DNA of 64,000 bases from an uncultured Lentisphaerota bacterium (GCA_903896925.1 CAITZM010000081.1:12111-76110), one strand, 5' to 3'; positions 33,152 to 64,000 are shown, counted from the first letter of the stretch. The notes: generated from the letters alone by a model not told the origin. Numbers and translations are program-made.

Positions 33152-33358
33152 GCGCCGGCCGGCCGGCGGAACGTGGCGGCCCTCCCGCGGATGGTTTCCT
33201 TGTACCAGGGCCTTGGGATTCTCTGCGCCGCTGATTATTTGATTGATTGCCGGCCTGCCGGCAGGACATGATAGGCCACCATGTTTACCCAGAACAACAA
33301 CGCGCGTGCTCCCAGGTCTGCGCGGCCGGCGGGCGGGGCTTTCCAAGGTCTGGAAAAT

Positions 33359-42248: not shown

Positions 42249-43220
42249 TCAGTCGCGCCGTCGGGCCGGCCCCAACCGAACAGGCGAAACGAATCCCTCC
42301 GGCTTAACGGCCAGCACGGAGCAGCGCACATGGCTCAGAACCGTCTCTGCTGTGTTTCCAATGAGCAGGCCATCCAAGCCTGAGCGGCCCGCGGTGCCCA
42401 TCACAATAAGTTCTGCACTGCGTTGGGCCGCCAGTGCATTGATCACCTGGGCTGGTTCGCCTTTCAGCACTTTGACCTGAACCCCTCGGCCCGGAAGATC
42501 GCAGGTTTCCACAAGACCGCCCAACCAGCGCCTGTGGGTGGCCGCCATAGCCCGAACAATATTTTCAAGGTCAACCCCAGGCGGTCGCACGCGCTCAGCC
42601 CACTGTTTGACCATGTCTTCTTTATACACGTTCCACACGTGGACAATCCAAAGCTCGCTGCCCTCCGAACGCGCCAACGCGGCCGCCAGGGCGATGATCT
42701 TGGCGGCCAGTGCGAGCTTCTGGCCGTCACCCGGGTCCGGATCTACCGCCGCAAGGATGCGTCTGAACGGCCTCTCCATGCCGGGCTTGAACGCCCATAA
42801 GGGGCACGGACACTTGCGCATCAGATGCATGGTCGTACTGCCGAAGAGCTGCGCGCGCAATCCGCTTGAACCCGCAGCCGTCCACATCAGCAAATCACGG
42901 TTGTGCTCGATAACATCGCGGATGACCTCGATATGGGGCGTACCGTAACGCACCACAAGCTCGATCTGCTGCCCTTTCAAACGCAGCGGCTTGACCAGAA
43001 GCGCCAGCTGGTTGCGCAGCTCCTTCAGTGCAAAGTTCTGTAGGTTAGCCGGCAGGGTGGCGGCCAGGAACAGCTGAAGGTCACGCGGCAAATGTTGCAA
43101 CACACCCAGAACAGTCAGCCGTGCGCGGTTACACTGTGCCAGCGTCACCGCACGTTCCAAGGCGACCCGGTTCTCGACCCTGTCATCAACGAAATACACT
43201 ATGTTTTTAAATCGCTTCAT
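42249..43220 (-). CDS. tandem universal stress protein (UspA) domains
   Basis: Two Usp-fold halves, each ending with the G-x2-G-x9-G(S/T) ATP motif (GTAGRSGL..GNTAETVL). Start overlaps the histidine-kinase stop. Confidence 0.7.
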   Translation of the reverse strand: MKRFKNIVYFVDDRVENRVALERAVTLAQCNRARLTVLGVLQHLPRDLQLFLAATLPANLQNFALKELRNQLALLVKPLRLKGQQIELVVRYGTPHIEVIRDVIEHNRDLLMWTAAGSSGLRAQLFGSTTMHLMRKCPCPLWAFKPGMERPFRRILAAVDPDPGDGQKLALAAKIIALAAALARSEGSELWIVHVWNVYKEDMVKQWAERVRPPGVDLENIVRAMAATHRRWLGGLVETCDLPGRGVQVKVLKGEPAQVINALAAQRSAELIVMGTAGRSGLDGLLIGNTAETVLSHVRCSVLAVKPEGFVSPVRLGPARRRD

Positions 43221-45933: not shown

Positions 45934-45957
45934 CAGCGTCTCCTCGCGGTGTGGTTT

Positions 45958-46257
45958 TCAGGGGCGGTGTTCACCGGGGGGGCTCTGCTCACCCGGTGAC
46001 GGGGGTGGCGGTCCGCCGGTTTTCGCAAGTCCCTTCCGCTTGCGAAACCAGGCCCTGATGCGGACTAGCCACCGGCGCAGCCAAGTTGCCACCCGGGACT
46101 TGGGCCACAGCAAGAGGATGCCTGAAATGATAAAAGGCCATCCTGGGAGCAACGGGAGGATCAGGCCCAGCACACCAATCAGCAGCAGGATACTGCCCGC
46201 AGCGATCCGCAGTACGTGGCCAACCGTCCTATGAAAGATGGTCTTATGAAGCTCCAT
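45958..46257 (-). CDS. small inner-membrane protein, DUF454/YbaN-like
   Basis: LPLLPGWPFIISGILLL motif typical of the YbaN family. 99 aa. Confidence 0.45.
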   Translation of the reverse strand: MELHKTIFHRTVGHVLRIAAGSILLLIGVLGLILPLLPGWPFIISGILLLWPKSRVATWLRRWLVRIRAWFRKRKGLAKTGGPPPPSPGEQSPPGEHRP

Positions 46258-46292
46258 GGCTCACCTCTTTGTTCATCCTGCTCAGGCAGTCT

Positions 46293-46592
46293 TCACAGCC
46301 CGCGCGCCAGCAGCTCGAGCCGCCGGATGCGTTCCTCGACCGGGGGATGTGTGCTGAACATTCGAGTCAGGCCCCCACTGGAAAAAGGGTTAATGATGAA
46401 GAGCGATGCGGTGGCAGGCGTGCCGACAGACAGCGGGGTGCGGGCGGCTGCCTCGTGGAGCTTGCGAAGTGCACCGGCCAAGGCCACCAAGAGGGCCACC
46501 AAGGCGCCCTTTTGACCTCCAATCCAGCCGCCGATGAGAACAAAGATGCTTGTGAGAGCGGCCAACAGCAGCGTGGTCTTGATGTAGTTCAT
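46293..46592 (-). pseudogene. htpX: htpX (M48 protease) remnant, with an in-frame internal deletion that removes the HEXXH zinc site
   Basis: N-terminal TM helix (MNYIKTTLLLAALTSIFVLIGG) is fused to the HtpX C-terminus (RMFSTHPPVEERIRRLE). About 190 codons including the catalytic motif are missing. 99 aa total. Confidence 0.5.
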
Positions 46593-46722
46593 AGCAGCCT
46601 TCCCGTTCCCCTCGACCTTGTCGCAAGCATGGCCACAGCGTGACCGCCAGAAGATGGCGATAGCGCCTCTATAGCTGTGGCCGACTGAGGGCGGCCGTCA
46701 CACGACACAAGGTTGCATGGCT

Positions 46723-49305
<2,583 letters not shown>

Positions 49306-49328
49306 ACACTTGTCCCTGCTCATATCCA

Positions 49329-50069
49329 TCATCCCAGGCCGGCCAGCAGCAGCCGGTTCTCCTGCCCACAACTGCGCCAGACTCTTTCGCCCACGCGGTC
49401 CGGCGGTGACCGCCCAGCATGGCAGGCTTCCCCTCCGGCCACATGCAGAGCGGCCGGAACCTGTCCTCGCCATGCGGGGCGTGGGGGCAGTCCGGTGGAC
49501 TTCCCGGCCACACGTAATGGCCCGAGGTTATCGAGGCGCAGCCATGCACGTCCTGCCGATAAGGGCCACTGGCTGGCATCCACCTCGACGCTGTGAATCT
49601 TCCATGTGTGGTCGTCACTCATCAAATCGCGTAAGCAGCCAAGGTCTTCCTCACCGGCAAGGAGATGACAGTCGAGCGCGTCCTGCTGGCTGTGCAAGCG
49701 CAGGCTGCAGGACGGCTCGCCTCCCTGTTCAAGCCCTGGTGGGCCGGACCAGTAATTTGGTAACTCGTAGTAAGCGCGCAACAGCTTCTCATCCTGACAC
49801 GAGAGGCCCCGCGCGGCGGTGAAGACCGGGCTGTTATGAATGGTGGCGGTAGGCAACCACGAGGAAAGCCAGCCAATTTCCCGGTCAATGCGGCTGATCA
49901 TCTCCGGAGGCAGCAGAAACGTGCGTGGTAACGATTTTTCGGGACCCGTAACGGCCAGGTACCGGACACTCCAATACACGTCGTCAAAATACAGATCCGT
50001 AACGGTCCCGAGTCTCCCGTCGCGCGTGTGCACCTGATAGCCTGGCAGCTCGCTTAAAGCCCATTTCAT
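49329..50069 (-). CDS. PRC-barrel domain protein
   Basis: N-terminal LPGYQVHTRDGRLGTVTDLYFDDVYWSVRYLAV is a PRC-barrel. Remainder is low complexity, so the 3' end is uncertain. Confidence 0.45.
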   Translation of the reverse strand: MKWALSELPGYQVHTRDGRLGTVTDLYFDDVYWSVRYLAVTGPEKSLPRTFLLPPEMISRIDREIGWLSSWLPTATIHNSPVFTAARGLSCQDEKLLRAYYELPNYWSGPPGLEQGGEPSCSLRLHSQQDALDCHLLAGEEDLGCLRDLMSDDHTWKIHSVEVDASQWPLSAGRAWLRLDNLGPLRVAGKSTGLPPRPAWRGQVPAALHVAGGEACHAGRSPPDRVGERVWRSCGQENRLLLAGLG

Positions 50070-50086
50070 GTCCGAACTCCTTTCCC

Positions 50087-50467
50087 CTACATCAACAGGT
50101 CGTCTGGCGCGAGCTGCGCCCCCGTGCAAGCGAACCGCTGCCGGCGCACCTGCCGCACGCCCCCGCGCCGGACCCTATCGACGGCGCGGCTCACAGCCAT
50201 GGCGAGCCGTCCGGACGCCCGGTCAATAACGCTGAAAAGCTCGACGCCTTCCTCTTTTATGACGATGCCCGCGGTCCGGCGCAGGCGCAGTTCAACAAGG
50301 CAATGCTTGTCTGGTCCGCCTTTGGGCCCGTTGGCATCGCTTAGCAGGATGCGCCCATGCAGGATGTGATGTGCGAAGCGATCCAGAGCCCGCTCAAAGC
50401 GGTCTCGGATACGGTTCACAGCGTCACGGTCCAGCGCTATGTGCAGCTTCCGAATCTCGATTCTCAT
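50087..50467 (-). CDS. putative ribosome-associated inhibitor (RaiA/HPF-like) small protein
   Basis: Beta-alpha-beta-beta-beta-alpha pattern (IEIRKLHIALDRD..IRDRFERAL..HCLVELRL..SVIDRASGRL) resembles the HPF fold. Low certainty. Confidence 0.35.
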   Translation of the reverse strand: MRIEIRKLHIALDRDAVNRIRDRFERALDRFAHHILHGRILLSDANGPKGGPDKHCLVELRLRRTAGIVIKEEGVELFSVIDRASGRLAMAVSRAVDRVRRGGVRQVRRQRFACTGAQLAPDDLLM

Positions 50468-50574
50468 GTCCTTGCTCCTGTGTTTGCGGTCGGTTTCATT
50501 GTTCACCGGTTGCTTTTCGTGACACCCTAGCGCCGGCCCTACAGTTTGAATATTAGATAATGAAGTCGTAATAG

Positions 50575-50589
50575 TTCGATATTATCGAA
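50575..50589. promoter_or_regulatory. dyad TTCGAT-N3-ATCGAA in the divergent AT-rich intergenic region. Candidate LysR-type (T-N11-A) operator.
   Basis: ttcgatattatcgaa, 70 bp upstream of the NhaR-like gene and about 110 bp upstream of the divergent HPF-like gene. Confidence 0.4.
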
Positions 50590-50658
50590 CATTCAAGCGC
50601 GGGCCGGCTTGCGGGCGGTTGCGTTCCAGGGGTGGCCCCGCTACACTGCGGCGGTACG

Positions 50659-51546
50659 ATGAACCGGCTGAACTATCATCATCTGCAGTACTTCTGGCTG
50701 GTGGCCAAGGAACGCAGCTTGGCGCGCGCCGCGGCCCTTCTGCGGCTGGCACCGTCCACCTTGAGCGGACAGATCCACGCCTTCGAGGGGGTGTTGGGGC
50801 AGGCACTGTTTGCGCGCGTGGGCCGCCGGCTCGAACTCACGGATGCCGGCCGGCTGGTGTACCGGTATGCCGACGATATCTTCACGTTGGGCACCGAATT
50901 GCAAGATGCGCTCCTTGACCGCCCTGTGGGACGGCCGCTCCGGCTGCAAGTCGGCATTGCGGACGCAGTTCCCAAGATGCTGGCGAGCACGCTGTTGCAG
51001 CCCGTCCTCGCCCTTGCGGATCGCGTGATCTTAACCTGTGTCGAAGGTTCCCCGGAGCGCCTGCTTGCCGCCCTGACCGCGCACGAGGTGGATGTCGTTT
51101 TCGCGGATGCGCCCTGCACAGCCCATCCGGGGCTTCAGGTGCTCAGCCACCTGCTGACGCGCTGTCCTGTCGTGATCCTCGGGACGAAGGCGCTGGCACA
51201 GCGCTACAGGAAGAATTTCCCCCGCTCGCTGCGCGGAGCGCCGCTGCTGCTGCCCACGCCGCAAGCCACGCTGCACCGGTCCATGGAGCAGTGGCTGTCT
51301 GAGCACGCCCTGACCCCTCAAATTATGGGGGAATTCGACGATCAGGCGCTGCTGGTTGAACTGGGGCAGGCAGGGCTCGGCCTTTTTCCGGTACCGGCCG
51401 CCATCGAGCGCACCATCCGCGCCCGCTTTCCGGTCCATCGCGTCGGCGTCATCAGCGAAGTCCACGAGTCCTTCTACGCCATTACCGTGGAGCGTCGCAT
51501 TGCGCACCCTGCTGTCGTGGCCATTTGCAAGCACCACATTCACTAG
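50659..51546 (+). CDS. LysR-family transcriptional regulator, NhaR-like
   Basis: N-terminus MNRLNYHHLQYFWLVAKERSLARAAALL parallels E. coli NhaR. A LysR substrate-binding domain follows. Confidence 0.7.
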   Translation: MNRLNYHHLQYFWLVAKERSLARAAALLRLAPSTLSGQIHAFEGVLGQALFARVGRRLELTDAGRLVYRYADDIFTLGTELQDALLDRPVGRPLRLQVGIADAVPKMLASTLLQPVLALADRVILTCVEGSPERLLAALTAHEVDVVFADAPCTAHPGLQVLSHLLTRCPVVILGTKALAQRYRKNFPRSLRGAPLLLPTPQATLHRSMEQWLSEHALTPQIMGEFDDQALLVELGQAGLGLFPVPAAIERTIRARFPVHRVGVISEVHESFYAITVERRIAHPAVVAICKHHIH

Positions 51547-51927: not shown

Positions 51928-54900
51928 TCACAGCTTCAGGATGGCGACTTTCGCGGGCGGCAGGTCGGCCAGGGGTTTGTGCGTGCCCGGCGGGGTGTCC
52001 CACTGCTGCACGATCGCTTCCTGCGTGCCTTCACTGCCGGTGGAAAGGAGATCTGATCCGGCCGCCATCCCACGGACTTGTGCCGTACCCTTGTCGGGCG
52101 TCAGCGCCGCAGCCACCAACTTGATATTTGAATGGCCCAAACTGCGCTCCATGGTGTCGAACCAGGTTTTGTCCGGCAGGGCGGGGAAGAGCAAGATGAA
52201 GCCATCGACTCTGTACTTGGCGGCCGCACCAATGAGGTCCTCGGCGCGCAGCGCGGCGCCGGGTTCTACGGTTACGGCCGGCATCAGGCGGATGCGGTGG
52301 TAACGCGTAAATAGGCGCAGCAGCTGGTCTTCGCTGCCGATGCTGGGCTGCCAAACGCCTTCTGCACTGATATTGAACCACGCGGGCGCCATGTCCGTGA
52401 CGCGATCGATTTCCGGGCGTACGGCCGCGAGGGCGGTGTCGAGCATGGCCTCGCTCTTGATGCCAGGCAGCAGGAGCATGCGGGGCGCCAACGGGCCGGC
52501 GCTGGCGCGCTCCATGACGACCTGGGCCTTGCCCAGCTCAGCGCTGAAGGCCGCCAGACCGAGCCAGCCGAGATCGAAGTCGGCCGGAACTTCGAGGGGC
52601 GAGGAGAACGCGGGCTGGTCGTTTATATAACCCATCAGACCTTCACCTCGCACCTCCAGGCGCAGGCGCACGGCGGCTTTCGTATCGGGCCACGGGCGGC
52701 TGCGTTGATCCACAATGTGGTTGTTGCGCCAGAGCTGCAGGTAGATGGTGCCGGATTCATCCCAGCCAAAGCGCACCATGTGCTCGGACGTGCGGCGCGC
52801 ATAGAGCCAGAAGGCACCCAGTTTCCGCTGGACCACGCCCTCCACGTAGGCGTCGCGGAAGTGTTCGGAACCCAGCAGGCGCATGGTGGCCTCGCTATGG
52901 GTGTCGTCGGAATGGATCAGCAGTTTGCCGGATTCGGCCTTGAAGACGCCGCCATCCAGCCACCAAGCCGGGGATATTTTACCGCCGGCGAAGTTTTCGG
53001 AGACCTGGTCTTTGCGCGGCAACAAGCGCTCGTAGAGCGTCGCGATGCGTGCATCCTTGGTTTGCGCAGCGATCTGCTGGACGAGTTTCACGAGGGCTCG
53101 GCTGCCGGGCAGGCTGAACAGGTCATACTTCCAGATGGCTTGTCCCAGTTCATACTGGAACTCGGGCTGCGCCCCGATGCGTGCCAAGGTTCCCATCTGC
53201 GTGCGATAATCAGCAGGGGCGATAGGCAGCCGCAACATGAAGGCCACAGCCTCGAAATTATTGGTATCCACCTGGATGATGTGCTGCACGATCGGGATGG
53301 CTTCGGCGCTGCGGTCATGCCGGCGCAGCCATTCCGCCTGTGCGAGCATGATGCTGGTGTTGTCCGGGAACAAGCGGGCGTAAATGTTAAGCTCGTTCAT
53401 CGCTTCTTCAATGCGGCCGGCGGTATCCAGCAGGCCGGCGCGGCGCAGGGCCAGCCGAATCTGCCCCGGGTCCAGATCCAAGCTCGTGGAGTAGTTGGTC
53501 AGGGCCTGTTTGAGGTCACCCAGCCGCAGGAAGGCATCGCCGATCAGCATGGGCGGCCGGGGGTTGTTGGGCTCCGCGGCGAACCATTGCTGCCAGAGCG
53601 TGACGGCTTTGCTGTAGTCGCCATCCATGAAGGCCGCCTGGCCGTCCTGCAGCAGTCGGGATGTCTTGAAAACCGAGGAGGTCAGGCTTTGGTTTTCGGC
53701 CATGGCGTTCAGCTCATAGAACATGGGCATGTCCTTGTCCTGGTCGGGAATCGGCACCTGCTCCAGTTTCGCCGTGGGCACGCTCGGGCCTTTGGGCGTG
53801 ATCGCACGCAAAGGCGAACCCGGCTCGGCCACAACCTGGATGGAAGGGATCACGGCCAGCAGGGAGCGCACAAAAACCGGGGTTTCCAGCGAGGGGGGCA
53901 GCCGCACCTTCAGTTCCAAGCCGCGCGCGCGCAGGTCGTTGGCACATTGCTGCAGCCAGGTCATAATGCGGGTCGTCGTCGGCTTCTGCATCTCGTCCAT
54001 CGTGACAAACATGCCCTGCGCTTTGATCTCGGAGAGCTTGTCGGCCAGTTGGGAGGGCGTCACGCGCGTCAGCGACTGCTCGTCGCCGATGTTGACGCGC
54101 GGCAACAAGCGGAAGTGATACATGCGGGCGATCATCGCGTAGGCGGTCGAATCCCAGACGCTCTTCAGCATCTGCCCGGAGGGTGAGAAGTTGATCCAGG
54201 ACGGGCTGATGTCCGTCAAACTATAAGCATGTTGATGGATCCAGCGAAACACGCCGGCATCATGCTGGCTGGAGCGGGAATCCCATGTGGCGACCGACCG
54301 TTCCGGCGGTTTGAGCGTGACCTCGGAGATGGTCACTTTCGCGCGGCCCTTGTCGGCCTGCCAGATGCTCAAGCCGATCATGCCGGGCTTCATGTCGCCG
54401 CGCAGGAGCACCCGCTCGGAGAAGATGGGTTTGCCATCCAGGCGCGCAAACAGGAGCGGGCCGCGGGCGTTGATGTCCAGCACATGTTCGCCCTTGGTGG
54501 CATCCACGTTCACATGCGACGAAGCGAGTGTGAACCGTTCCAGCGTGGCTTGTTTTTGCCGCAGCCACACGCCCATGTCCAAGCTTTCCTCGGCTTCCAT
54601 GCGCGTCGCGTCCTGCCCGAATTTGGTCTGCCGCAAACAGGCGGTGCCTTTGGAGTCCAGTCCGAGGTAGACGTACGATTCCTCGTCGGCCGCGGCGCGG
54701 GCATAGATGCCCAACTGGCCGCTGAGCTGGCTGAACACCACGCGGGAGTAGAAATCCTTGGTCAAATCGCTGCCCGCCAGCCACATTTTGGCGCCGGTGT
54801 TTTGTTCCGGCGCATAGAGGGTCATGCCGGCTTTGTCGTCTTTCACCGCGCCCCAGTCCACGATCCAGGCCGCGGCGATGCGCGAGGTGTTGGTGACGGA

Positions 54901-55920
54901 TGAGATGGATTCGTCCACCGGCCAGGAGCGGTCCAGGAAGTCCACCAGGTCCTCTCCGGACCATTCCGGTTTTACGCGCAGCCGGTTGAGCCGCTTCGGA
55001 TCGCTATAGCGGGTGTTGACGGACAGGTTGCCGGTCAAGAACCCCAGGCTGTAATACTTGCTCGCCAGCTGCAGGTTGACCAGGCGGGCGAATACGGCGC
55101 GCGATTCAAACTGGCCGAAGTCGCCATAGGGATAGGCGTACGCCTTGGGCTTGATCCCGGTCTTCTTCTCGATGACCTGCAGGCAGGCCTCATGATCCTG
55201 CGCCAACCGGTCGGCGAACTCGGCCGGGGTCTCGAACCGATTCTCCTCCGCCAGCCATTTGGCGGTGGTCATGAAATGCCCCAGATAGCCCTGCTGGCTG
55301 GCCGGGACCGCCGCAAAACCATTGAAGCTTTGCGCGCCCAGTTCCCAGGTGCCCGACCGCGACATGATCTGTATGTAGGGCCACAGCAAAGCGGCAGGAT
55401 CCTTGTCGATGATCGGATGGGTCCACAGGAACATCACGGCTTTCCAGCCCGCGCTCTTGAGGATGGGGTCCGCCGCGAAATACGAACTCTTCCGGCCGTG
55501 ATCGAAGGTCAGCAGCACGGACTTTTGGGGTACAGGCTTGCCTTCGTAAAGCAACTGGCGCACATCCTCCAGTTGGATCGGCACATAGCCCCGGCTCCGC
55601 AGTTCCTTCAGGTGCTCCGTGAACAAGGCGGTATTGACCTCGTTGGTGCGCTGCGAAACGCCCTCGTAGGCCAGCGCCACAAAGGCGTACGAGGTGCGCG
55701 GCCCGGCTTTGACGTCGGGATACATCCAGTGTGAAATCAGGGCCCGCAGGGGGAAATACCAGGCCACCACCAGGCAGAGCACAATCATGAAGTGCATCCA
55801 CGAGGAGGTGTAGACCACGGTGACCGGCTGAATAATCGTCCGCCCCCCGGCGCCATCTCCGCCGCTCTTCGGCGGGGTTTGGTCGGGCGTGGACTGCGGC
55901 GCTTGCGGCTTCGTAATCAT
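51928..55920 (-). CDS. large membrane-anchored multidomain exopolysaccharide-modifying protein (TM helix, CE4-like deacetylase, TPR region, further carbohydrate-active-like domains), about 1330 aa
   Basis: Start ATG overlaps the synthase stop (ATGA at 55917-55920). TM helix WMHFMIVLCLVVAWYF. Deacetylase-like block VLLTFDHGRKSS...YAYPYGDFGQ echoes the paralogs at 33-42 kb. TPR-like repeats around TLWQQWFAAEPNN..DAFLRLGDLKQALTNY. The ORF could extend to 56274 but would then overlap the synthase by 357 nt. Confidence 0.6.
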   Translation of the reverse strand: MITKPQAPQSTPDQTPPKSGGDGAGGRTIIQPVTVVYTSSWMHFMIVLCLVVAWYFPLRALISHWMYPDVKAGPRTSYAFVALAYEGVSQRTNEVNTALFTEHLKELRSRGYVPIQLEDVRQLLYEGKPVPQKSVLLTFDHGRKSSYFAADPILKSAGWKAVMFLWTHPIIDKDPAALLWPYIQIMSRSGTWELGAQSFNGFAAVPASQQGYLGHFMTTAKWLAEENRFETPAEFADRLAQDHEACLQVIEKKTGIKPKAYAYPYGDFGQFESRAVFARLVNLQLASKYYSLGFLTGNLSVNTRYSDPKRLNRLRVKPEWSGEDLVDFLDRSWPVDESISSVTNTSRIAAAWIVDWGAVKDDKAGMTLYAPEQNTGAKMWLAGSDLTKDFYSRVVFSQLSGQLGIYARAAADEESYVYLGLDSKGTACLRQTKFGQDATRMEAEESLDMGVWLRQKQATLERFTLASSHVNVDATKGEHVLDINARGPLLFARLDGKPIFSERVLLRGDMKPGMIGLSIWQADKGRAKVTISEVTLKPPERSVATWDSRSSQHDAGVFRWIHQHAYSLTDISPSWINFSPSGQMLKSVWDSTAYAMIARMYHFRLLPRVNIGDEQSLTRVTPSQLADKLSEIKAQGMFVTMDEMQKPTTTRIMTWLQQCANDLRARGLELKVRLPPSLETPVFVRSLLAVIPSIQVVAEPGSPLRAITPKGPSVPTAKLEQVPIPDQDKDMPMFYELNAMAENQSLTSSVFKTSRLLQDGQAAFMDGDYSKAVTLWQQWFAAEPNNPRPPMLIGDAFLRLGDLKQALTNYSTSLDLDPGQIRLALRRAGLLDTAGRIEEAMNELNIYARLFPDNTSIMLAQAEWLRRHDRSAEAIPIVQHIIQVDTNNFEAVAFMLRLPIAPADYRTQMGTLARIGAQPEFQYELGQAIWKYDLFSLPGSRALVKLVQQIAAQTKDARIATLYERLLPRKDQVSENFAGGKISPAWWLDGGVFKAESGKLLIHSDDTHSEATMRLLGSEHFRDAYVEGVVQRKLGAFWLYARRTSEHMVRFGWDESGTIYLQLWRNNHIVDQRSRPWPDTKAAVRLRLEVRGEGLMGYINDQPAFSSPLEVPADFDLGWLGLAAFSAELGKAQVVMERASAGPLAPRMLLLPGIKSEAMLDTALAAVRPEIDRVTDMAPAWFNISAEGVWQPSIGSEDQLLRLFTRYHRIRLMPAVTVEPGAALRAEDLIGAAAKYRVDGFILLFPALPDKTWFDTMERSLGHSNIKLVAAALTPDKGTAQVRGMAAGSDLLSTGSEGTQEAIVQQWDTPPGTHKPLADLPPAKVAILKL

Positions 55921-57497
55921 CTCGTCCCCCATGTAGTTCTGCGCATCGTGGCAAAGGCGTAATAGCCCTGCCAGCTGAAAAAGAAAACGTAAGTCAAAAC
56001 AAAGATGAACCCGGTCCACCAATGCCGCCGGCCGGTTTTTTCCAAATAGTAGAGCGACCACAGCAGGGTCACGACCAACACGCCGCCAATATAGAAACCA
56101 GGGAGGCGGTGCATGGCCAGCGGCGCCATGATGAGCGCGTTGAACATCACGAGCGGCGCAATCGTCGGCAGAATGGTCATGGCGTACCAGGAGATGGCCG
56201 CCACAGGATGCTTGCGCCACATAAACTGACCGGCGAGAAACATCTCCCGCCCCCACGAGCGTTTCCAGCGGCACTGCTGGTTGACATATTTGCGCCAGTC
56301 TTCCGGCACGATCGTGGTGGCGAGCGCCTCGTCGTCATAGAGGATGCGGTAGTTCTTCAGCAGCATGTTCGTCAGTGCGCGGTCATCTCCGAACGTCGCG
56401 TAGTTGCCCAGAAATTTCTGGTAGAGCCACTTGTCGAGCACGTGCAGCACGCACGATTTACGGTAGGCCGAGAAGCAGCCCGGGCAGCAGCTGACCGCGC
56501 CGAACAGGCTCTCCGCGGCCTTCATTACGCGATAGGATACGAAGTAGCGCACGTCCTGCATCTTGGTCAGGACATTGACCTCCACGTTTTCCACATCGGT
56601 GTGTCCGGCCACGGCCGCGACGGTGGGATCCACCAGCCCTTGCACCACCTTGTGGATGGAGCCCGGCAAGAGAAAGCTGTCGGAATCCACATAGACCAGC
56701 ACTTCGCTGCGCGCCAGCCGTGCGCCCACCGCCATGCCATGGCGCTTGCCCTTGTTCTGCTCGAAATCCACGACGATCAGGCTGGGGTGCCGGGCTTGGG
56801 CGCGCATCATGTCAGCCAGGGTGTTGTCGGTGGAGCCGTCATTCACGGCGACCACTTCCAGCTTGGAATGCGGATAGCCTTCGCCATAGATCCGGCCGAT
56901 GGTTTTCTCGATGGAGCCTTCTTCGTTGCGACAGGCCACGATCACGGCCACCGTGGGTTCGTAGCCGACATCGGACGGGGCCATGTAGAAGGCGGCCAGG
57001 AAAAACCTGGAAAGAATGAATACGCCCACGGTCAGGCTGTAGAGGTTGACCAGCGGTTGATACCAGTAATAGGTCAGATTGTGGAGTTTCAGGAAAACGG
57101 CCAGGGCCAGGAGCAGGATGATCGCGAAAATGAGGAAGATAGCCACCGGCTTGGCGGGTTGGCGATAATTCTCGGAGCCCGCGCGAGCTTCGAACATGTT
57201 CGCAGGCTCAGGGCTGGCTGGCGGGACCACAAACGTCTCCCGCGTCATGCGTGCCTGGCAAAACGGGCAGACCATAGGGGAGGGGGCACGGATGACCCGT
57301 ATCCCCAGCAAGCAATGCGGACAGTAATCGGTAGTGCCGGTTAAGCGTTCCGTCGCCAACGTGCTGCCCTGAAGGCGCACGGCTGTCTCCACCGCTAAAC
57401 TATTGGCTCCACTTTGAAGCGGCGCCGACGAAGCAATGACCATATGCCCTCTTGTTCTATTTCGATTATACTGTATACGAAGAGCGTTCAAACGCAA
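55917..57497 (-). CDS. membrane-embedded processive family-2 glycosyltransferase (PgaC/IcaA/BcsA-like polysaccharide synthase) with an N-terminal zinc-ribbon
   Basis: GT2 DxD region (VNDGSTDNT, YVDSDS), the QCRWKRSW signature (QxxRW) and flanking TM helices. The N-terminus carries CPHC...CPFC. Confidence 0.75.
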   Translation of the reverse strand: MRLNALRIQYNRNRTRGHMVIASSAPLQSGANSLAVETAVRLQGSTLATERLTGTTDYCPHCLLGIRVIRAPSPMVCPFCQARMTRETFVVPPASPEPANMFEARAGSENYRQPAKPVAIFLIFAIILLLALAVFLKLHNLTYYWYQPLVNLYSLTVGVFILSRFFLAAFYMAPSDVGYEPTVAVIVACRNEEGSIEKTIGRIYGEGYPHSKLEVVAVNDGSTDNTLADMMRAQARHPSLIVVDFEQNKGKRHGMAVGARLARSEVLVYVDSDSFLLPGSIHKVVQGLVDPTVAAVAGHTDVENVEVNVLTKMQDVRYFVSYRVMKAAESLFGAVSCCPGCFSAYRKSCVLHVLDKWLYQKFLGNYATFGDDRALTNMLLKNYRILYDDEALATTIVPEDWRKYVNQQCRWKRSWGREMFLAGQFMWRKHPVAAISWYAMTILPTIAPLVMFNALIMAPLAMHRLPGFYIGGVLVVTLLWSLYYLEKTGRRHWWTGFIFVLTYVFFFSWQGYYAFATMRRTTWGTR

Positions 57498-57940: not shown

Positions 57941-58348
57941 ATGAGCATGGCCAAAATTTTGATCATTGAAGACGAGCCGGTGGTGTGGTCGTTGCTGCGG
58001 CGTATCATCACCGGGATGGGGCACCAAGTGGAACTGGCCAGCGACGGGCAGAAGGGTCTGGCCTTGGCCGGCCAAGGCCAATTCGATGTGATCGTTTCCG
58101 ACTTGCACATGCCGGGACAACCCGCCGGCATGGAACTCATCCGGCAGTTGCACAACCTGTGCCCGAAGTGCCCGATCGTCATCGTCTCCGGATACCCCTC
58201 CGCGGAGACGCTGAGCGAGTGTGAACAGTTGGGCATCACAGATTTCCTGACCAAACCCTTTGAGATGACCTTTGTGCAGGCCAGTATTGAGAAAATCCTG
58301 AAAACAAAGGCGGGCATGGCTCCCGTGCCGGCCAAGGGGAATGCATGA
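57941..58348 (+). CDS. single-domain response regulator (CheY-like receiver)
   Basis: KILIIEDEP...VIVSDLHMPG...TKP. 135 aa, no output domain. Confidence 0.7.
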   Translation: MSMAKILIIEDEPVVWSLLRRIITGMGHQVELASDGQKGLALAGQGQFDVIVSDLHMPGQPAGMELIRQLHNLCPKCPIVIVSGYPSAETLSECEQLGITDFLTKPFEMTFVQASIEKILKTKAGMAPVPAKGNA

Positions 58349-59277
58349 TTGGTAAAACTCCCATAGGTGTTCCGTTCTTCGACGCCGAATTCGGCGGCGT
58401 CTACCCTAACCGGGTGTCGTTGGTCACGGGCCGCGCCGGGTCGGGGAAAACCATCTTGGGTTTACACTTTCTTGACCAAGGCTTGCGGCAGCACGAACGG
58501 GCTTTGATGTTGTCGGCCCGGCCGGCGCAGGATCTGGTCATCACCGCGGAATCGCTGGGGATGTCGTTTGCCCCCTCGATCGAGTCGGGCGCGTTGACCC
58601 TGTTGGAGTACAACGAATTTGTCCCCGGCCGCGACCATGAAGCGAACATCAACCTGCCACCCGACGGGTTCATCCAGCTCAAAGAGGTGATCGAGCAGCA
58701 GGCCGTCAATCGCGTTGTGATTGATACCGTCTTGCCGTGGATCACCCTGTCGGATTCCGCCCATCTCCCCGAGCATATTTTCTCCTTGGTGCGCGCCTTC
58801 GAGCGCCTGGGTGTCACCGCGCTGTTCACCTTGCCCAAGCCGGTTTCGACCACGGCGGGCCGGCTGCGCAAGCTGGTGGAGGATGTGGTGCCGGTGTCCC
58901 TGACGCTGTTGCGCGAGCCCGACGCTCCCTCGCGACAGATGCTGGTAACCAAGTACCTGGGCGTGAATGCGCGGCCGGAAGGCTTCGCCTACGACATCGT
59001 CGCCCAAAAGGGGTTTGTCCTGTATCAGCCCGCACCCCAGGAGTCGCCGGCCCTCGGCGCCCCGACCTTCTTCGCCTCAGCCGCGGCGCGGACAGCGCCG
59101 GTCATGGCGCCGGAAGTTGCGCCCGTGGCTCCGCCTCCTGCGCCGCCTGCGGGCAAGGGCCGTATCAGCTTTGCTTCCATGGTGCTTGATCAATCACTCT
59201 CCGCCCGCTCTGGCGCAACGCGGCCAGTTGCGGCACCCCCTATGCGAGGGGGGGCGGGGACCGGCGGAGGGAGTTAA
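58345..59277 (+). CDS. KaiC/RecA-superfamily single-domain ATPase with a Pro/Ala-rich tail
   Basis: GVPFFDAEFGGVYPNRVSLVTGRAGSGKT Walker A in the KaiC/RadA-like context. ATGA-coupled to the receiver gene. Confidence 0.6.
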   Translation: MIGKTPIGVPFFDAEFGGVYPNRVSLVTGRAGSGKTILGLHFLDQGLRQHERALMLSARPAQDLVITAESLGMSFAPSIESGALTLLEYNEFVPGRDHEANINLPPDGFIQLKEVIEQQAVNRVVIDTVLPWITLSDSAHLPEHIFSLVRAFERLGVTALFTLPKPVSTTAGRLRKLVEDVVPVSLTLLREPDAPSRQMLVTKYLGVNARPEGFAYDIVAQKGFVLYQPAPQESPALGAPTFFASAAARTAPVMAPEVAPVAPPPAPPAGKGRISFASMVLDQSLSARSGATRPVAAPPMRGGAGTGGGS

Positions 59278-60141
59278 ATGTATTTCAAATACTGGGGTCT
59301 GCGGGAGCGACCGTTTCAAAACATAGCCGATGTGCGGTTTGCCTATCTTTCCGAGCAGCATCGGGAAGGTTTGGCGCGTTTGTTGTACCTGGTGGAGGAG
59401 CAGAAGCTGGGCGGAACCTTGGTGGGCCCCTACGGCGTCGGCAAGTCGATGATCATCGAGTTGCTGGCCGAAAACGTGCGTGGCAAGATCGGTGAACGTT
59501 ATCTGCAGTTCGACGCACCCCTGACCGGTGCGCTGTCGCTGGCCAAGCAAATCGTCGCGCATCTGGGTCATACCGAGACCGTCTATGACATCTCCGGCGC
59601 TTTGGAGGCGCTGCAAAACCACTTTACCGAAACCAACGGCGGTGTGGCCCATCTGGTGCTGGTCATTGACGAGGCCCAGATGCTGCGGGCGTCCTCGGAC
59701 TACGAATTTCTCCATCTCTTGTGCAATATGCGCATGCGTCGGCGCGATGGGAGCCTCGGTGCCCCGGCGATCACGTTGTTGCTGGTGGGCCATCAGGATT
59801 TGGTGCAACATCTGGCCGCGGAACAGTCGCTGGCCCAGCGCCTGCAGCTTTTCTGGCGCCTGGAGCCGCTCAACGCCCGCCAATGCATCGAATATGTGCA
59901 GCACCGCGTGCGCGCTTCCGGCGGGGATATCTGGATTTTCGATGAAGGCGCACTGGCCGCGGTCCATGAGGCCACGCAGGGCGTGCCGCGCCTGATCAAC
60001 AACATTTGCGACACCGCCCTGCTGATCGGTTGCGCCATGCATGCCCCGCGGATCACCGCGGACATCATGCGGCAGGCCATTGCCGAGACACAGTCACCCT
60101 TGCTGCCGCCGACCGTGTCACCCCCTGGAGTTCCCGTATGA
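59278..60141 (+). CDS. ExeA/MshM-like AAA ATPase (secretion-ATPase family seen in PEP-CTERM/EPS loci)
   Basis: ERPF motif, GPYGVGKS Walker A, VIDEAQ Walker B. 287 aa. Confidence 0.6.
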   Translation: MYFKYWGLRERPFQNIADVRFAYLSEQHREGLARLLYLVEEQKLGGTLVGPYGVGKSMIIELLAENVRGKIGERYLQFDAPLTGALSLAKQIVAHLGHTETVYDISGALEALQNHFTETNGGVAHLVLVIDEAQMLRASSDYEFLHLLCNMRMRRRDGSLGAPAITLLLVGHQDLVQHLAAEQSLAQRLQLFWRLEPLNARQCIEYVQHRVRASGGDIWIFDEGALAAVHEATQGVPRLINNICDTALLIGCAMHAPRITADIMRQAIAETQSPLLPPTVSPPGVPV

Positions 60142-60518: not shown

Positions 60519-60794
60519 GGCGCCTCGCCGTTCCCCCGCTTGGAAAGCAGTTCTGGCTGCCGCGGTCCGCAGGGCCAGCCTCTCGTCGTCGTCTTTACGC
60601 CCGCGGAAACCCTGCCCTCGTCATGCTCTTTTCGCCCTCCCGTCGGACCGGTCTCGACATGACCGCTTAACGGCAGATGGGGTTGGCATGCTCGAGGAAG
60701 ATGTGCGACACCCTCCCCGCCTTGCTCGGGCACCGTTTTTTCCGCTTGGCACCCGCTGGGGGTTGGCCCGCCGTGGGGCCGGTTGCTGGGGTTG

Positions 60795-61403
60795 TCAACC
60801 GGTGAGCACGCGGCGGCCGGCGAGGCGCAGCTTCTGTTGCGCGATGAGCCGCAGCGCGGCGGGATAGGCCTCGTACTCCTGCTCCTGGATGCGCGCGTGC
60901 AGCGTCGCGGGTGTGTCGCCGTCGAGCACAGGCACGGCGCGCTGCACGATGATCGGCCCGGTGTCGGTGCCGGCGTCCACAAAATGCACGGTGCAGCCGG
61001 CGACCTTGGCGCCGTAGTCGAGCGCCTGCTTCCACGCCTCCAGCCCCGGAAACGCGGGCAGGAGCGCAGGGTGAATATTGATGATGCGGCCGGCGTAGGC
61101 GGCGAGCAGGCCGCCTTTGATGAGGCGCATGAAGCCGGCGAGCACGAGCACCTCGGCGCCGTGCTGCCGCAAAATTTCGATGACGCGCTGCTCGGCGGCA
61201 CCGTCGAGCTTGGTCTTGAACGGCGCGCAGTCCACGTGGAGCGCGGGGATGCCGTGCTGCCGCGCGCGCGCGAGGATGAAGGCGTCGGCGACGTCCGAAA
61301 GGACGCAGACAATGTTGGCGTCCAGCGTGTGCGCGGCGATCGCGTCGAGGATCGCCTGCGCGTTGCTGCCCTTGCCGGAACCGAGAATGGCGATGTTTAA
61401 CAT
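60795..61403 (-). CDS. purN: phosphoribosylglycinamide formyltransferase
   Basis: ILGSGKGSN, GFMRLI, NIHPALLPAF and DAGTDTGPII motifs. 203 aa. Confidence 0.8.
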   Translation of the reverse strand: MLNIAILGSGKGSNAQAILDAIAAHTLDANIVCVLSDVADAFILARARQHGIPALHVDCAPFKTKLDGAAEQRVIEILRQHGAEVLVLAGFMRLIKGGLLAAYAGRIINIHPALLPAFPGLEAWKQALDYGAKVAGCTVHFVDAGTDTGPIIVQRAVPVLDGDTPATLHARIQEQEYEAYPAALRLIAQQKLRLAGRRVLTG

Positions 61404-61530
61404 GGTTTGTTCCCGTGCGCTCAGTATGCCAAGCAAGCCGCCGAACACAAGGCTGTAACCTTTCGCCGGCGCACGGCGTAGTGGTCGGGTGCAGGCGGCG
61501 CCGGATTGGCGCGGCCGCGGAGAACTCAAG

Positions 61531-62472
61531 ATGAAACGTAGCATGTGGTTGGTGGCGGTGGCGTTGCTCGCGCTCGGCGCGCAGGGCAGCCCGTTGAAGC
61601 CGGAACTGGTGCCGGGGCAGGCGACGTGGTTCGTGCACCTCGATGTCGAAAAGCTGCTCGCGTCGCAGGTCGGCGCGCAACTGCTCGATGCCATCAAGGC
61701 GGAGCCGAAATTCTCGGCGCAGCTCGATATGATCCAGAACGCCGTCGGCGTGGACCTGCGCAAGGACATCAAGGGGCTGTCGCTCTTCGGCCCGGACGCG
61801 CACAAGGATCATGGTGTGATGGTCTTCAGCGGCCTGCCGAACACCGACAAATTACTCACGACCATCAAGGCCAACCCGACGCACGAGGAGCAGGCCGGGG
61901 ACGGCCTGACCATGCACAAGTGGAACGACAAGGGCCACGACAACTTCGGCACCATCCTGCCCGGCGGCGTCTGCATCATCAGCGGCTATGCCGAGGCCGC
62001 GCGCGTCACCGCGCAGGTGATGCACAGCGGGCAGGGCGGGCTGACGGCTGCCAGCACGCTTGGCGGCTTGGCGAAAAGCGGCGGCGACGGTATGCTGCGC
62101 GCTGCCGTGGATGGCAGCGCCGGTCTGCCCGGCGGCCAGCCGCAGGCGGCGGTGCTCAAGAAAGTGATCTCCGCCGAGTTGCAGTTGAACGAGCGCGACG
62201 CGAAGGTCTCCGCCGAGCTGACCCTGGCCACCGACGCGCCTGCGTCGGCGGTGCAGATCGCGGACGTGGTGCGGGGGCTGATCGCCTACGGCCAGCTCGC
62301 CGAGGACGCCGCGCCGCAGTGGAAACAGCTGGCGCAGGCGGCCACCGTCACGCAGAGCGGAGCGCAGGTGAAGCTCACGGCCGGCTGTACGGCCGCCGAA
62401 CTCGTGGAATGGATCAGGAAAGCCCGTGGTGCAAAACAGCAAGCCAAGTCCGCCGCCGCCAGCGGCATCTGA
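61531..62472 (+). CDS. secreted hypothetical protein
   Basis: Signal peptide MKRSMWLVAVALLALGAQG. 313 aa. No family recognised. Confidence 0.45.
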   Translation: MKRSMWLVAVALLALGAQGSPLKPELVPGQATWFVHLDVEKLLASQVGAQLLDAIKAEPKFSAQLDMIQNAVGVDLRKDIKGLSLFGPDAHKDHGVMVFSGLPNTDKLLTTIKANPTHEEQAGDGLTMHKWNDKGHDNFGTILPGGVCIISGYAEAARVTAQVMHSGQGGLTAASTLGGLAKSGGDGMLRAAVDGSAGLPGGQPQAAVLKKVISAELQLNERDAKVSAELTLATDAPASAVQIADVVRGLIAYGQLAEDAAPQWKQLAQAATVTQSGAQVKLTAGCTAAELVEWIRKARGAKQQAKSAAASGI

Positions 62473-63055
62473 GTCCGGGCCGACCGACGGCTGGCTCGTC
62501 CAGCAGGCCGTGTCCGGCTGCAGCGCGAGCTTCGAGCGGCTCGTGGAGCGGCATACGCCGCGCCTCCTGCGCTACCTGCAGCGCCGCACCGGCAGCCGCC
62601 ATGACGCCGAGGATCTCGCACAGGAAACGTGGGCGCGCGCGTTCCGCTACCTGGAGCGCTGTGATGTGGGGCGCAGCTTCCCCGCGTGGCTCTGGACGAT
62701 CGCGGCGCGGCTGGCGGTGAGCCGCCACCGCAAGCAGACGCTGCCGCTGGCGGTGTGGGGCGCCGACGTGGCCGCCGCCGGCCCCGACGCGCGGATGCAA
62801 CTCGCCGACGCGGAAGAGCGCGCCGGCCTGTGGGCGCTCGCGGAGCGCGTACTCAAACCTGCGCAGCGCGAAGCCCTGTGGCTGTTTTATGTCGAGGAAA
62901 TGTCCGTGAAGGAAGTCGCCCAGATCCTGTCGATCGGCACCATCTCCGCCAAGGTGCTGCTGCATCGTGCGCGCCGCCGGCTGGGCGTGGCCTTGCAAGG
63001 CGACAGCGCGGCGCTGCCCGTGTTCAGCGCCTGCGCGGAAGGAGCGGAACCATGA
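62426..63055 (+). CDS. RNA polymerase sigma factor, ECF subfamily. An alternative GTG start near 62510 would avoid the 47-nt overlap with the upstream gene.
   Basis: Region 2 (DAEDLAQETWARAF) and region 4 (SVKEVAQILSIGTISAKVLLHRARRRL). Confidence 0.75.
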   Translation: MVQNSKPSPPPPAASESGPTDGWLVQQAVSGCSASFERLVERHTPRLLRYLQRRTGSRHDAEDLAQETWARAFRYLERCDVGRSFPAWLWTIAARLAVSRHRKQTLPLAVWGADVAAAGPDARMQLADAEERAGLWALAERVLKPAQREALWLFYVEEMSVKEVAQILSIGTISAKVLLHRARRRLGVALQGDSAALPVFSACAEGAEP

Positions 63056-63630
63056 TCTGCACATTCCACCGCTGGCTGCTCTCGCAAGCCGCCGACGCGC
63101 GCCGCGCCGCGCCGCGCCCCACGCAAGCACATCTCGTCGCCTGCGCCGACTGTCGCGCCTATGCCGCACTCTGCACGCGCCTGCCCCGGGCGTTCGCCGC
63201 CGGCGTGCCGGAGGTGGCCGAGGGTTTCGACACCAGCCTGCTGCGTCAGCGCATCCTGGCGCGCACCGTGCTCGCGCCGGACGTTGCCAAGCCCTGGCAA
63301 CCGCATGCGCCTTTTTTCCCAAGCCTTGGAAGAAACGGAGCCATATTTTCCAAGCCTTGGAGACCGGCGCTCGCCGCCGCCGCGCTCGTCTGCGTGGTGC
63401 TCGCGGCCGGCGGCCTGGTCCGGCAGCAGTTGTCCCGTGCGCAGCAGCAGACGACGCTCGCCGCCTTGCAGTCCGTGCGGCTCGCCTATGACGATGCGCT
63501 GCAGCAGGGCCCCGCCGCCGTCGCCGGGCTGCTCGATACCGCCGCCCAGCAGATCGCCGCCGACGCCGCGTCCGCCGTGGGTTTCCTCGGTGCCGCGCTC
63601 CCGCCCGCCGCACAACCCAACCGCTCGTAG
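63052..63630 (+). CDS. anti-sigma factor (zinc-finger type, single TM)
   Basis: ATGA-coupled to the ECF sigma gene. HLVACADCRAY zinc motif and the TM helix ALAAAALVCVVLAAGGLV. Confidence 0.6.
   Translation: MICTFHRWLLSQAADARRAAPRPTQAHLVACADCRAYAALCTRLPRAFAAGVPEVAEGFDTSLLRQRILARTVLAPDVAKPWQPHAPFFPSLGRNGAIFSKPWRPALAAAALVCVVLAAGGLVRQQLSRAQQQTTLAALQSVRLAYDDALQQGPAAVAGLLDTAAQQIAADAASAVGFLGAALPPAAQPNRS
63286..63365 (+). repeat. imperfect approximately 31-bp tandem repeat (3 units sharing AAGCCYTGG), AT-richer than the surroundings, inside the anti-sigma CDS
   Basis: gccaagccctggcaaccg / ttttttcccaagccttggaagaaacgg / ttttccaagccttggagaccgg. Confidence 0.5.
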
Positions 63631-63643
63631 AGGCACGGACACC

Positions 63644-64000
63644 ATGACAAAAAAATGGCAGCGCACCGAACTGTTGGACTTTGCGCGCGCGTTCCAGCCC
63701 GTATGCGTGCTGGCCGCCGCCGCCGAACTCGAGCTCTTCGCCGCGCTCGCGCGCCGGCCGCTGACCGCCGCGCAAACCGCGAAAAAACTGGCCGGTGACC
63801 CGCGCGCCACCGCCCTCCTCCTCGACGCGCTTGCCGCCCTGCGCCTGCTCGCAAAAACCGGCGACCGCTACGCGCTCGCGCCCGGCGTCGCCGGGACGCT
63901 GACGGCCGACGGTCAGCACAGCGTCCTCGCCATCATCCAGCACCAGGCGAACTGCCTGCGGCGCTGGGCCCAGCTGGCGGGCGTCGTCAAGACCGGCCGG
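63644..64000 (+). CDS. O-methyltransferase (family 2, N-terminal dimerisation domain), 3'-truncated at the window edge
   Basis: Open frame to the end of the window. LLDFARAFQPVCVLAAAAELELFAAL resembles the OMT dimerisation/winged-helix domain. Confidence 0.4.
   Translation, partial: MTKKWQRTELLDFARAFQPVCVLAAAAELELFAALARRPLTAAQTAKKLAGDPRATALLLDALAALRLLAKTGDRYALAPGVAGTLTADGQHSVLAIIQHQANCLRRWAQLAGVVKTGR

Follow-up and report, generated by a model that had tools for sequence, protein, structure and literature searches.

A hyaluronan/chitin-type synthase and a giant protein with a degenerate deacetylase fold form a probable polysaccharide secretion core in Lentisphaerota and relatives

We analysed a 64,000-nucleotide stretch of the genome of an uncultured Lentisphaerota bacterium (GCA_903896925.1 CAITZM010000081.1:12111-76110; hereafter the window), in which two overlapping genes encode a membrane synthase of glycosyltransferase family 2 (GT2) and a very large multidomain protein, hereafter the giant (Table 1). 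The pair probably forms the core, at the inner membrane, of a conserved system for synthase-dependent exopolysaccharide secretion in bacteria of the Planctomycetes–Verrucomicrobia–Chlamydiae (PVC) group, with the giant acting as a non-catalytic guide or scaffold. What is understood of synthase-dependent polysaccharide secretion comes from four systems of Proteobacteria, those for cellulose, poly-N-acetylglucosamine (PNAG), Pel and alginate, and to our knowledge the slime and biofilm polymers of Lentisphaerae, Kiritimatiellae and Verrucomicrobia are essentially unstudied. An initial annotation, made from the sequence of the window, had seen in the giant a polymer-modifying enzyme fused to scaffold domains; the evidence below points to a different role.

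Results

The synthase and the giant are overlapping and conserved genes

A mechanical list of open reading frames (ORFs) in the window holds minus-strand ORFs at 55917..57497 and 51928..56274, and the coordinates and the ATGA overlap of the synthase stop with the giant's start given by the initial annotation were confirmed in the sequence. The synthase gene ends in GGG ACG AGA TGA, the A ahead of its stop codon (55919-55917) being shared with the ATG of the giant (55920-55918). Its start is most likely the ATG at 57443, which is called on the metagenome-assembled public contig that matches the window and gives 508 residues, rather than the TTG at 57497. For the giant, an in-frame ATG at 56274 had been put forward as an alternative start; the codon there is GTG and lies inside the synthase coding region in a different frame, and both gene calls and homologue lengths favour 55920. 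A start equivalent to 55920 is used in independent gene calls and by about 120 homologues of 1280-1340 residues, and the giant is not an assembly artefact.

Because full-length homologues are found at E = 0, with 33-78% identity across the full length, both ORFs are real genes and not chance reading frames. The giant's closest relative in the species-level genome set comes from a Lentisphaerae bin (78% identity over the N-terminal 700 residues). Database names of the homologues are generic: 'polysaccharide deacetylase family', 'TPR protein', 'glycosyltransferase' and 'hyaluronan synthase'.

Gene context was compared across five public contigs and 79 loci taken from a scan of one genome per species. 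The hosts are Lentisphaerae, Kiritimatiellae or Verrucomicrobiota bins, together with one isolate and a few oddly named bins. Of the 66 loci whose flanks are long enough, at least 57 have the synthase gene directly upstream of the giant gene and on its strand. Among the nine apparent exceptions, four are artefacts of the coordinate estimate, three have the synthase downstream of the giant (L044, L079 and L081), and in two no synthase was found. At the stop/start junction, read in 57 loci, ATGA occurs 47 times, GTGA twice and a TGATG- or TAATG-type arrangement six times. The proposed translational coupling of the synthase to the giant, a multidomain periplasmic protein, is supported by an overlap that is read here and kept in related loci.

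Six bins carry two diverged copies of the pair on different contigs (L023/L037, L028/L031, L027/L032, L014/L040, L030/L034 and L039/L055), which suggests two paralogous subfamilies of the system.

The deacetylase fold of the giant appears to be catalytically dead

The N-terminal half of the giant contains a domain of carbohydrate esterase family 4 (CE4) of the circularly permuted PgaB/IcaB type (phmmer to 3vus, E 5e-21; Foldseek TM-score 0.76-0.80 to 3vus and 4u10). Model TIGR03938 matches the giant over model positions 20-214 only, with 99 bits against an equivalog cut-off of 322. The catalytic base and one metal ligand of CE4 enzymes come from motif 1 (TFDD), two His ligands come from motif 2, and another His is the catalytic acid (PMC5855634). 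We determined the states of these residues by alignment to PgaB and counted them over 62 family members. The catalytic acid H55 of PgaB corresponds to E86 of the giant (E in 44 of the 62, otherwise A, D, S or G), and its metal ligands D115, H184 and H189 correspond to H141 (H in 43, Q in 17), Q197 (Q in 51, E in 10) and F202 (F in 55). Only the equivalent of D114, the catalytic-base Asp (D140 in the giant), is kept, with D in 58 members and E in the other 4; the Asp-His-His triad and the H55 acid have been replaced. The change from TFDD to TFDH that was reported at first is correct, and the domain deviates from the CE4 pattern well beyond it.

We read the giant as a scaffold or guide because the metal site and the catalytic His are lost family-wide, and its CE4 domain appears catalytically dead. 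A single degenerate copy beside active paralogues typically marks a pseudo-enzyme, and we read the giant's domain in this way because three paralogues encoded at the same locus, named T1, T2 and T3, keep the canonical motifs (YHG, TFDD, GGHxxxAH and YPFGD). The earlier count of four CE4-like domains at the locus, one in each of T1, T2 and T3 and one in the giant, is correct, and judging from their residues the first three are probably active deacetylases and the fourth a pseudo-deacetylase. There is precedent for CE4 proteins that are inactive and have a structural role: BA0330 and BA0331 of Bacillus anthracis have the fold without deacetylase activity (PMC4505593), as proposed here for the giant, from which they differ in being small lipoproteins that act on the cell wall, outside any synthase complex.

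A modifier akin to PgaB or PelA, that is, an active deacetylase with or without a hydrolase fused to a scaffold, would give the locus four active deacetylase domains. This reading, the one favoured by the initial annotation, is unlikely. It can draw on a CE4 fold that is intact and confidently modelled, on the conservation of D140, on the invariant polar residues E230, R238, D242, H243 and D267, and on the D-x-E found in some relatives at the catalytic positions of glycoside hydrolase family 18 (GH18) in the middle alpha/beta domain. Against these stand the replacement of all three metal ligands and of the catalytic acid across the giant family, the pattern expected of one pseudo-enzyme beside paralogues that keep every canonical residue, and the window giant's own GH18-equivalent positions, which are T/D and L/P.

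The rest of the giant is a duplicated lectin-like module around a repeat segment

Two AlphaFold2 models of the giant were built from 62-sequence alignments, one of residues 60-760 (predicted local distance difference test, pLDDT, 86; predicted TM-score, pTM, 0.79) and one of residues 965-1330 (pLDDT 94, pTM 0.91). Pfam recognises Polysacc_deac_1 (E 1.4e-11) and tetratricopeptide repeat (TPR) matches at about residues 790-865, and beyond CE4 and TPR the giant has no Pfam or NCBIfam match. The transmembrane anchor, CE4-like domain and TPR segment of the initial annotation therefore stand. The roughly 900 residues that it had left unassigned, with a GH114- or GH153-like domain in mind, resolve on domain parsing into a duplicated module made of a ConA/CBM66-like beta-sandwich and an alpha/beta domain of about 185 residues, with no GH114/GH153 barrel. 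The two sandwich and alpha/beta modules are an internal duplication (BLASTP E 2e-14, with the copies aligned). Pfam scans of the isolated beta-sandwich, alpha/beta domains and the synthase's zinc ribbon gave nothing above noise, and the GHL13 Pfam model has no match in the giant, whose alpha/beta domains reach only ~185 residues.

The alpha/beta domain can tentatively be called GH18-like. A profile of both copies picks up weak GH18 chains in the PDB at E 0.08-0.8 (4q6t at 0.08, 4s3k at 0.088, and further 4wiw, 5jh8 and 3bxw), and two of these entries recur in an independent Foldseek search at E ~4e-6. In two Foldseek searches with the C-terminal module, matches to the beta-sandwich saturate the lists and the alpha/beta fold is weakly supported. 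Among aligned relatives, one has DGIFLDLE in the middle alpha/beta domain, which puts D and E on the GH18 catalytic positions, and several keep the D only; the window giant reads AQGMFVTMD. Hydrolase activity might thus be retained in a minority of the giant family.

The single transmembrane helix of the giant is strongly conserved (80-90% at its Y, W, A, W and P positions across 61 homologues), which suggests that it makes a specific contact within the membrane.

The synthase belongs to the NodC/hyaluronan/chitin synthase clade and ends at its gating loop

The synthase carries QxxRW and DxD motifs and has hydrophobic segments on both sides of its GT domain, in agreement with the processive-type membrane GT2 first described. 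Its Pfam matches are Glycos_transf_2 (5.6e-23), Chitin_synth_2 (8.6e-20; 71 bits against a cut-off of 27) and Glyco_tranf_2_3; the top NCBIfam models are NodC (TIGR04242, 167 bits against 550) and PgaC/IcaA (TIGR03937, 121 against 422), and the CelA model reaches only 26 bits. Against solved structures, class I hyaluronan synthases (HAS) come out on top, with the Chlorella virus enzyme (CvHAS; 7sp6/8snc) at E ~7e-32 over residues 228-508. GDDR, QQxRW and WGTR align with CvHAS residue for residue, and DSD falls on its DxD motif. PilZ and Cellulose_synt profiles have no match in the synthase in Pfam. Because of the Pfam and NCBIfam scores and the CvHAS alignment, we assign the enzyme by sequence to the NodC/HAS/chitin-synthase clade, and it is not an orthologue of PgaC or BcsA, the enzymes to which it had been likened.

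The N-terminal CPHC..CPFC ribbon had been singled out as unusual, which holds for the family as a whole: a Cx2C-x14-CPFC motif precedes the transmembrane segments in 103 of 104 full-length homologues (≥470 residues), and no Pfam model describes it.

The other end of the protein is equally distinctive. WGTR or WGTRG is the terminus in nearly all of 120 synthase homologues. In HAS, WGTR is the gating loop between IFH3 and TMH5, which contacts UDP and is essential for activity (PMC11750622). CvHAS runs for about 110 residues past this motif and the window synthase stops at its R; the family therefore does without the last two transmembrane helices of HAS, TMH5 and TMH6. The NodC profile ends at about the same point, which gives the synthase a core of NodC-like length.

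This arrangement raises the possibility of a split synthase, in which the giant's transmembrane helix would follow the gating loop in trans, replace TMH5/6 of HAS and complete the channel, making the giant an obligatory subunit. The WGTR loop of HAS joins IFH3 to TMH5, the synthase chain ends at WGTR family-wide, the giant starts on the overlapping ATG with a short tail followed by a conserved transmembrane helix, and GT2-CE4 fusion proteins are known in PNAG-type operons (PMC7112194). No natural fusion of synthase and giant was found among the long homologues, however, the longest of which (1446-1581 residues) carry C-terminal extensions and not a synthase; and since the NodC profile ends near the same point, the short C-terminus may simply be NodC-type architecture. 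We regard a split synthase as possible, though doubtful.

The clade also admits a reading without any secreted exopolysaccharide, in which the products are short chito-oligosaccharides from a NodC-like enzyme, or the proteins act in peptidoglycan remodelling. The top family model of the synthase is indeed that of an oligosaccharide synthase, the weak GH18 matches of the giant include the spore-cortex enzyme SleL/YaaH, and CE4 and SleL/YaaH-type folds both act on peptidoglycan. We nevertheless consider this very improbable: the NodC score falls far below its equivalog cut-off, no other nod-type genes were present among the neighbours scanned, and synthase-dependent secretion fits the whole set, in which a periplasmic partner anchored in the membrane occurs together with TPR proteins that have signal peptides and with a probable outer-membrane domain.

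Three paralogous TPR deacetylases belong to the same system

The T1-T3 genes are tandem paralogues with mutual identities of 40-49%, and each product has an N-terminal hydrophobic leader, a TPR array and a PgaB-type CE4 domain (Pfam, NCBIfam). T3 alone has an additional 357 C-terminal residues that end in ...VKYNF and show an alternating hydrophobic pattern; this part has no match among PDB sequences or in Pfam. The domain is a candidate outer-membrane barrel and makes T3 a candidate PgaA-plus-PgaB-like fusion; the TPR region of T3 scores 54 bits against the PgaA model TIGR03939 (cut-off 367).

The inclusion of this 33-42 kb array in the system, part of the original proposal, is borne out by other genomes, in which T3-like genes adjoin the pair: T3-like proteins of 1100-1200 residues are encoded beside it in about 35 loci. 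On a Lentisphaerae GWF2 contig (L002) the T3-like gene abuts the giant gene, and for this reason the unrelated block of roughly 10 kb in the window looks like a local insertion. The block (42249-51546) encodes a tandem Usp protein, a dCache-PAS hybrid histidine kinase, a P-type cation ATPase and a LysR regulator. The G+C content is 0.66-0.71 at about 4-34 kb and 0.59-0.65 at about 36-60 kb, the part that holds the polysaccharide genes and the inserted block.

Neighbouring genes and distant relatives

Divergent from the synthase lie genes for a stand-alone receiver, a KaiC-like ATPase and an ExeA/AAA_22 ATPase. Where at least 7 kb of upstream sequence was available, the KaiC-like and AAA_22 genes are both present in 27 of 39 related loci. 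Taken together, the synthase-giant pair, its stop/start overlap, TPR-CE4 proteins and this trio are found again among about 80 genome bins of the PVC group. Control by cyclic di-GMP (c-di-GMP), an idea raised at the outset, finds no sign here: the synthase has no PilZ domain, an Rfam scan of 49-61 kb that admitted E values up to 0.1 returned neither a c-di-GMP riboswitch nor another leader RNA, and the conserved neighbours are the receiver and the KaiC-like and ExeA-like ATPases. A promoter and terminator scan gave nothing above background. The scanned neighbours include no gene for UDP-glucose dehydrogenase. Two minus-strand ORFs in high-G+C sequence (60667-61812, 381 residues; 62414-63943, 509 residues) lie downstream of the ATPase genes, have no Pfam match and may or may not be genes.

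A search with the C-terminal module among 1.84 billion representative proteins found only 144 clusters. Besides the giants, these include proteins of about 600-650 residues with no Pfam match, which align to residues ~30-710 of the giant and consist of the transmembrane helix, a degenerate CE4 domain (LLFEE for TFDD) and one sandwich-alpha/beta module. Three such short giants lie outside the PVC group, one of them attributed to Candidatus Binatia. On one contig, the short giant directly follows a chitin-synthase-like GT2 that is ~50% identical to the window synthase and has the WGTR end and no zinc ribbon; on two other contigs it lies beside a TPR-CE4 protein of ~1210-1225 residues, and the one examined (on L085) has canonical motifs and a C-terminal Phe. 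Given this short form outside the PVC group, a core of synthase, pseudo-CE4 partner and TPR-CE4 protein would be older than the PVC version, which on this comparison is the one that gained the zinc ribbon, the TPR and the second module.

Table 1 Features of the locus and of related short giants (window positions unless a contig is named)
Feature	Position	Strand	Remarks
GT2 synthase gene	55917..57443	-	508 aa; NodC/HAS/chitin-synthase clade; Pfam, NCBIfam, structure-sequence matches
CPHC-x14-CPFC zinc-ribbon-like motif	57258..57323	-	synthase residues 41-62; predicted cytoplasmic
Two N-terminal hydrophobic transmembrane segments	56979..57164	-	synthase residues ~94-155; Kyte-Doolittle scan
GT-A catalytic domain	56259..56957	-	Glyco_tranf_2_3 over residues 164-396
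DSD	56676-56687	-	synthase residues 253-255
GDDR	56379-56390	-	synthase residues 352-355
QQCRW	56265-56279	-	synthase residues 389-393
WGTR, synthase C-terminus	55920..55931	-	residues 505-508; aligns to CvHAS 455-458 of 568
ATGA stop/start overlap (translational coupling)	55917..55920	-	read from sequence
Giant gene	51928..55920	-	1330 aa + stop; sequence, public gene call, ~120 homologues
N-terminal tail of giant		-	residues 1-37; 37 aa before transmembrane helix
Single transmembrane helix of giant	55735..55809	-	residues ~38-62; hydropathy scan
PgaB-type circularly permuted CE4 fold, degenerate	54916..55689	-	residues ~78-335; TFDH at 55498-55509 (138-141)
Beta-sandwich 1, ConA-like/CBM66-like	54304..54876	-	residues 349-539; AlphaFold2 model, Foldseek 4b1m E 3e-10, TM-score 0.8
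Alpha/beta domain 1, weakly GH18-like	53749..54297	-	residues 542-724, ~185 aa; model, Foldseek 4s3k/4q6t ~4e-6
TPR segment	53236..53673	-	residues ~750-895; Pfam TPR_14, TPR_19, TPR_16
Beta-sandwich 2, copy of beta-sandwich 1	52489..53004	-	residues 973-1144
Alpha/beta domain 2, copy of alpha/beta domain 1	51931..52482	-	residues 1147-1330
T1 TPR-CE4 gene	33281-35905	+	874 aa
T2 TPR-CE4 gene	35981-38386	+	801 aa
T3 TPR-CE4 gene	38465-41938	+	1157 aa
Receiver, stand-alone	57944-58348	+	Pfam; divergent from synthase
KaiC-like ATPase (RecA superfamily)	58345-59277	+	Pfam
ExeA/AAA_22 ATPase	59278-60141	+	Pfam; TIGR03015-like (PEP-CTERM-associated ATPase), 116 bits
Short giants, outside the PVC group	L085 8001-9938; L086 8001-9944; L087 2977-4920		~645 aa

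Discussion

The locus resembles several known systems in part. Class I HAS (CvHAS, Xenopus HAS1), NodC and chitin synthases are, like the window synthase, membrane GT2 enzymes with DxD, GDDR, QxxRW and WGTR motifs and two transmembrane helices before the GT domain. The window synthase differs from them in its N-terminal zinc-ribbon-like head and one extra transmembrane helix, from HAS in lacking TMH5/6, and from all of them in that its locus also encodes periplasmic and putative outer-membrane partners, which are not known for HAS, NodC or chitin synthases. The bacterial chitin synthases reported in 2016, a eukaryote-derived group in Proteobacteria, are distinct from it. BcsA has a C-terminal PilZ domain and a Cellulose_synt match, and the window synthase has neither. 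It thus fails the defining tests for NodC, PgaC, BcsA and full-length HAS.

The locus follows the synthase-dependent logic of Pga: it combines a GT2 synthase with a permuted CE4 domain of PgaB type, with TPR and, putatively, with a component in the outer membrane, and T1-T3 keep the PgaB catalytic residues. Unlike Pga, it has a synthase that is not PgaC, no PgaD, no GH153 domain, a deacetylase in three copies, a fusion of TPR, CE4 and putative barrel in T3, and an additional inner-membrane-anchored pseudo-CE4 giant. The giant itself fails the PgaB tests (metal site, GH153 domain and score) and those for PelA, which combines a GH166 hydrolase with CE4; the giant has no GH166 match in Pfam or NCBIfam.

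A possible parallel in architecture is BcsB, the periplasmic partner of a processive GT2, which has one transmembrane helix packed on the synthase and two repeats of a carbohydrate-binding jelly-roll plus a flavodoxin-like alpha/beta domain. The duplicated sandwich and alpha/beta module and the single transmembrane helix of the giant may be comparable to these; unlike that of BcsB, the giant's anchor is N-terminal rather than C-terminal, and the giant has the CE4-like domain and TPR in addition. BcsB has no Pfam match in the giant and is not among the fold-search matches listed.

GT2-CE4 fusions occur in PNAG-type operons without pgaA and pgaD (Bundalovic-Torma et al. 2020, PMC7112194), and the window differs from these in having two ATGA-coupled genes, a degenerate CE4 domain and a large added scaffold. 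That survey of synthase-dependent operons does not mention the PVC phyla, and our literature search found no published description of the system in PVC bacteria. Judging from sequence, the parts are each of known kinds (GT2 synthase, CE4, TPR, lectin-like sandwich and probable porin), and none of Bcs, Pga, Pel and Alg combines them in this way.

On the reading that we prefer, the synthase would polymerise a GlcNAc-containing beta-glycan from UDP-sugars and push the chain across the inner membrane. The giant would be made in step with it by termination-reinitiation at the ATGA, pack against it through the transmembrane helix and serve as a non-catalytic guide or scaffold, in the way that BcsB does for cellulose and the C-terminal domain of PgaB, which binds PNAG, does for that polymer. 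The nascent chain may be held by the dead CE4 groove and the lectin-like domains, and the TPR segment may dock or recruit T1-T3, which would partially de-N-acetylate the chain before it leaves through the C-terminal domain of T3 as the putative outer-membrane exit. The receiver, KaiC-like and ExeA-like ATPases would probably regulate or energise assembly, possibly via the zinc ribbon. We infer both the identity of the polymer and this mechanism from the features described above.

Several points weigh against this scheme. Loss of the canonical residues is no proof of inactivity, since an alternative site might be built from D140, H141 (which is frequent) and the invariant residues E230, R238, D242 and H243. 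The fold assignment of the alpha/beta domain is tentative, its GH18 signals in the profile search being only those at E 0.08-0.8, and the T3 barrel is deduced solely from a C-terminal Phe and composition. T1-T3 lie 10 kb from the pair in this window, with unrelated genes between. The linkage of the product cannot be called: the synthase clade points to a beta-1,4 GlcNAc or hyaluronan-like chain, and the CE4 subtype is that of PNAG (beta-1,6) deacetylases. Finally, NodC-length enzymes can yield short oligosaccharides and not polymers.

A bolder version would combine the split chitin/hyaluronan-type synthase, with the giant's helix in the channel, with secretion of a chitin- or chitosan-like polymer through a dedicated trans-envelope machine, a fifth Gram-negative kind beside Bcs, Pga, Pel and Alg, controlled by the zinc ribbon and the KaiC-like and ExeA-like ATPases and not by c-di-GMP. 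A single complex would then hard-wire polymerisation to passage through the membrane and to transfer of the chain in the periplasm. In its entirety we judge it rather unlikely.

Regarded as a probable secretion core, the locus would represent a further, widely conserved synthase-dependent arrangement in Lentisphaerae, Kiritimatiellae and Verrucomicrobia, one in which a chitin/hyaluronan-type synthase is joined to Pga-like periplasmic parts. Its synthase is a natural example of a chain that stops at the gating loop, and its giant shows a deacetylase fold that seems to have been taken over as a polymer guide without catalysis, next to three paralogues that are probably active. Should the system secrete a chitin- or chitosan-like polymer, these bacteria would be a bacterial source of such material, and the pair would provide a tractable model for the control of translocation by a gating loop and a partner helix.

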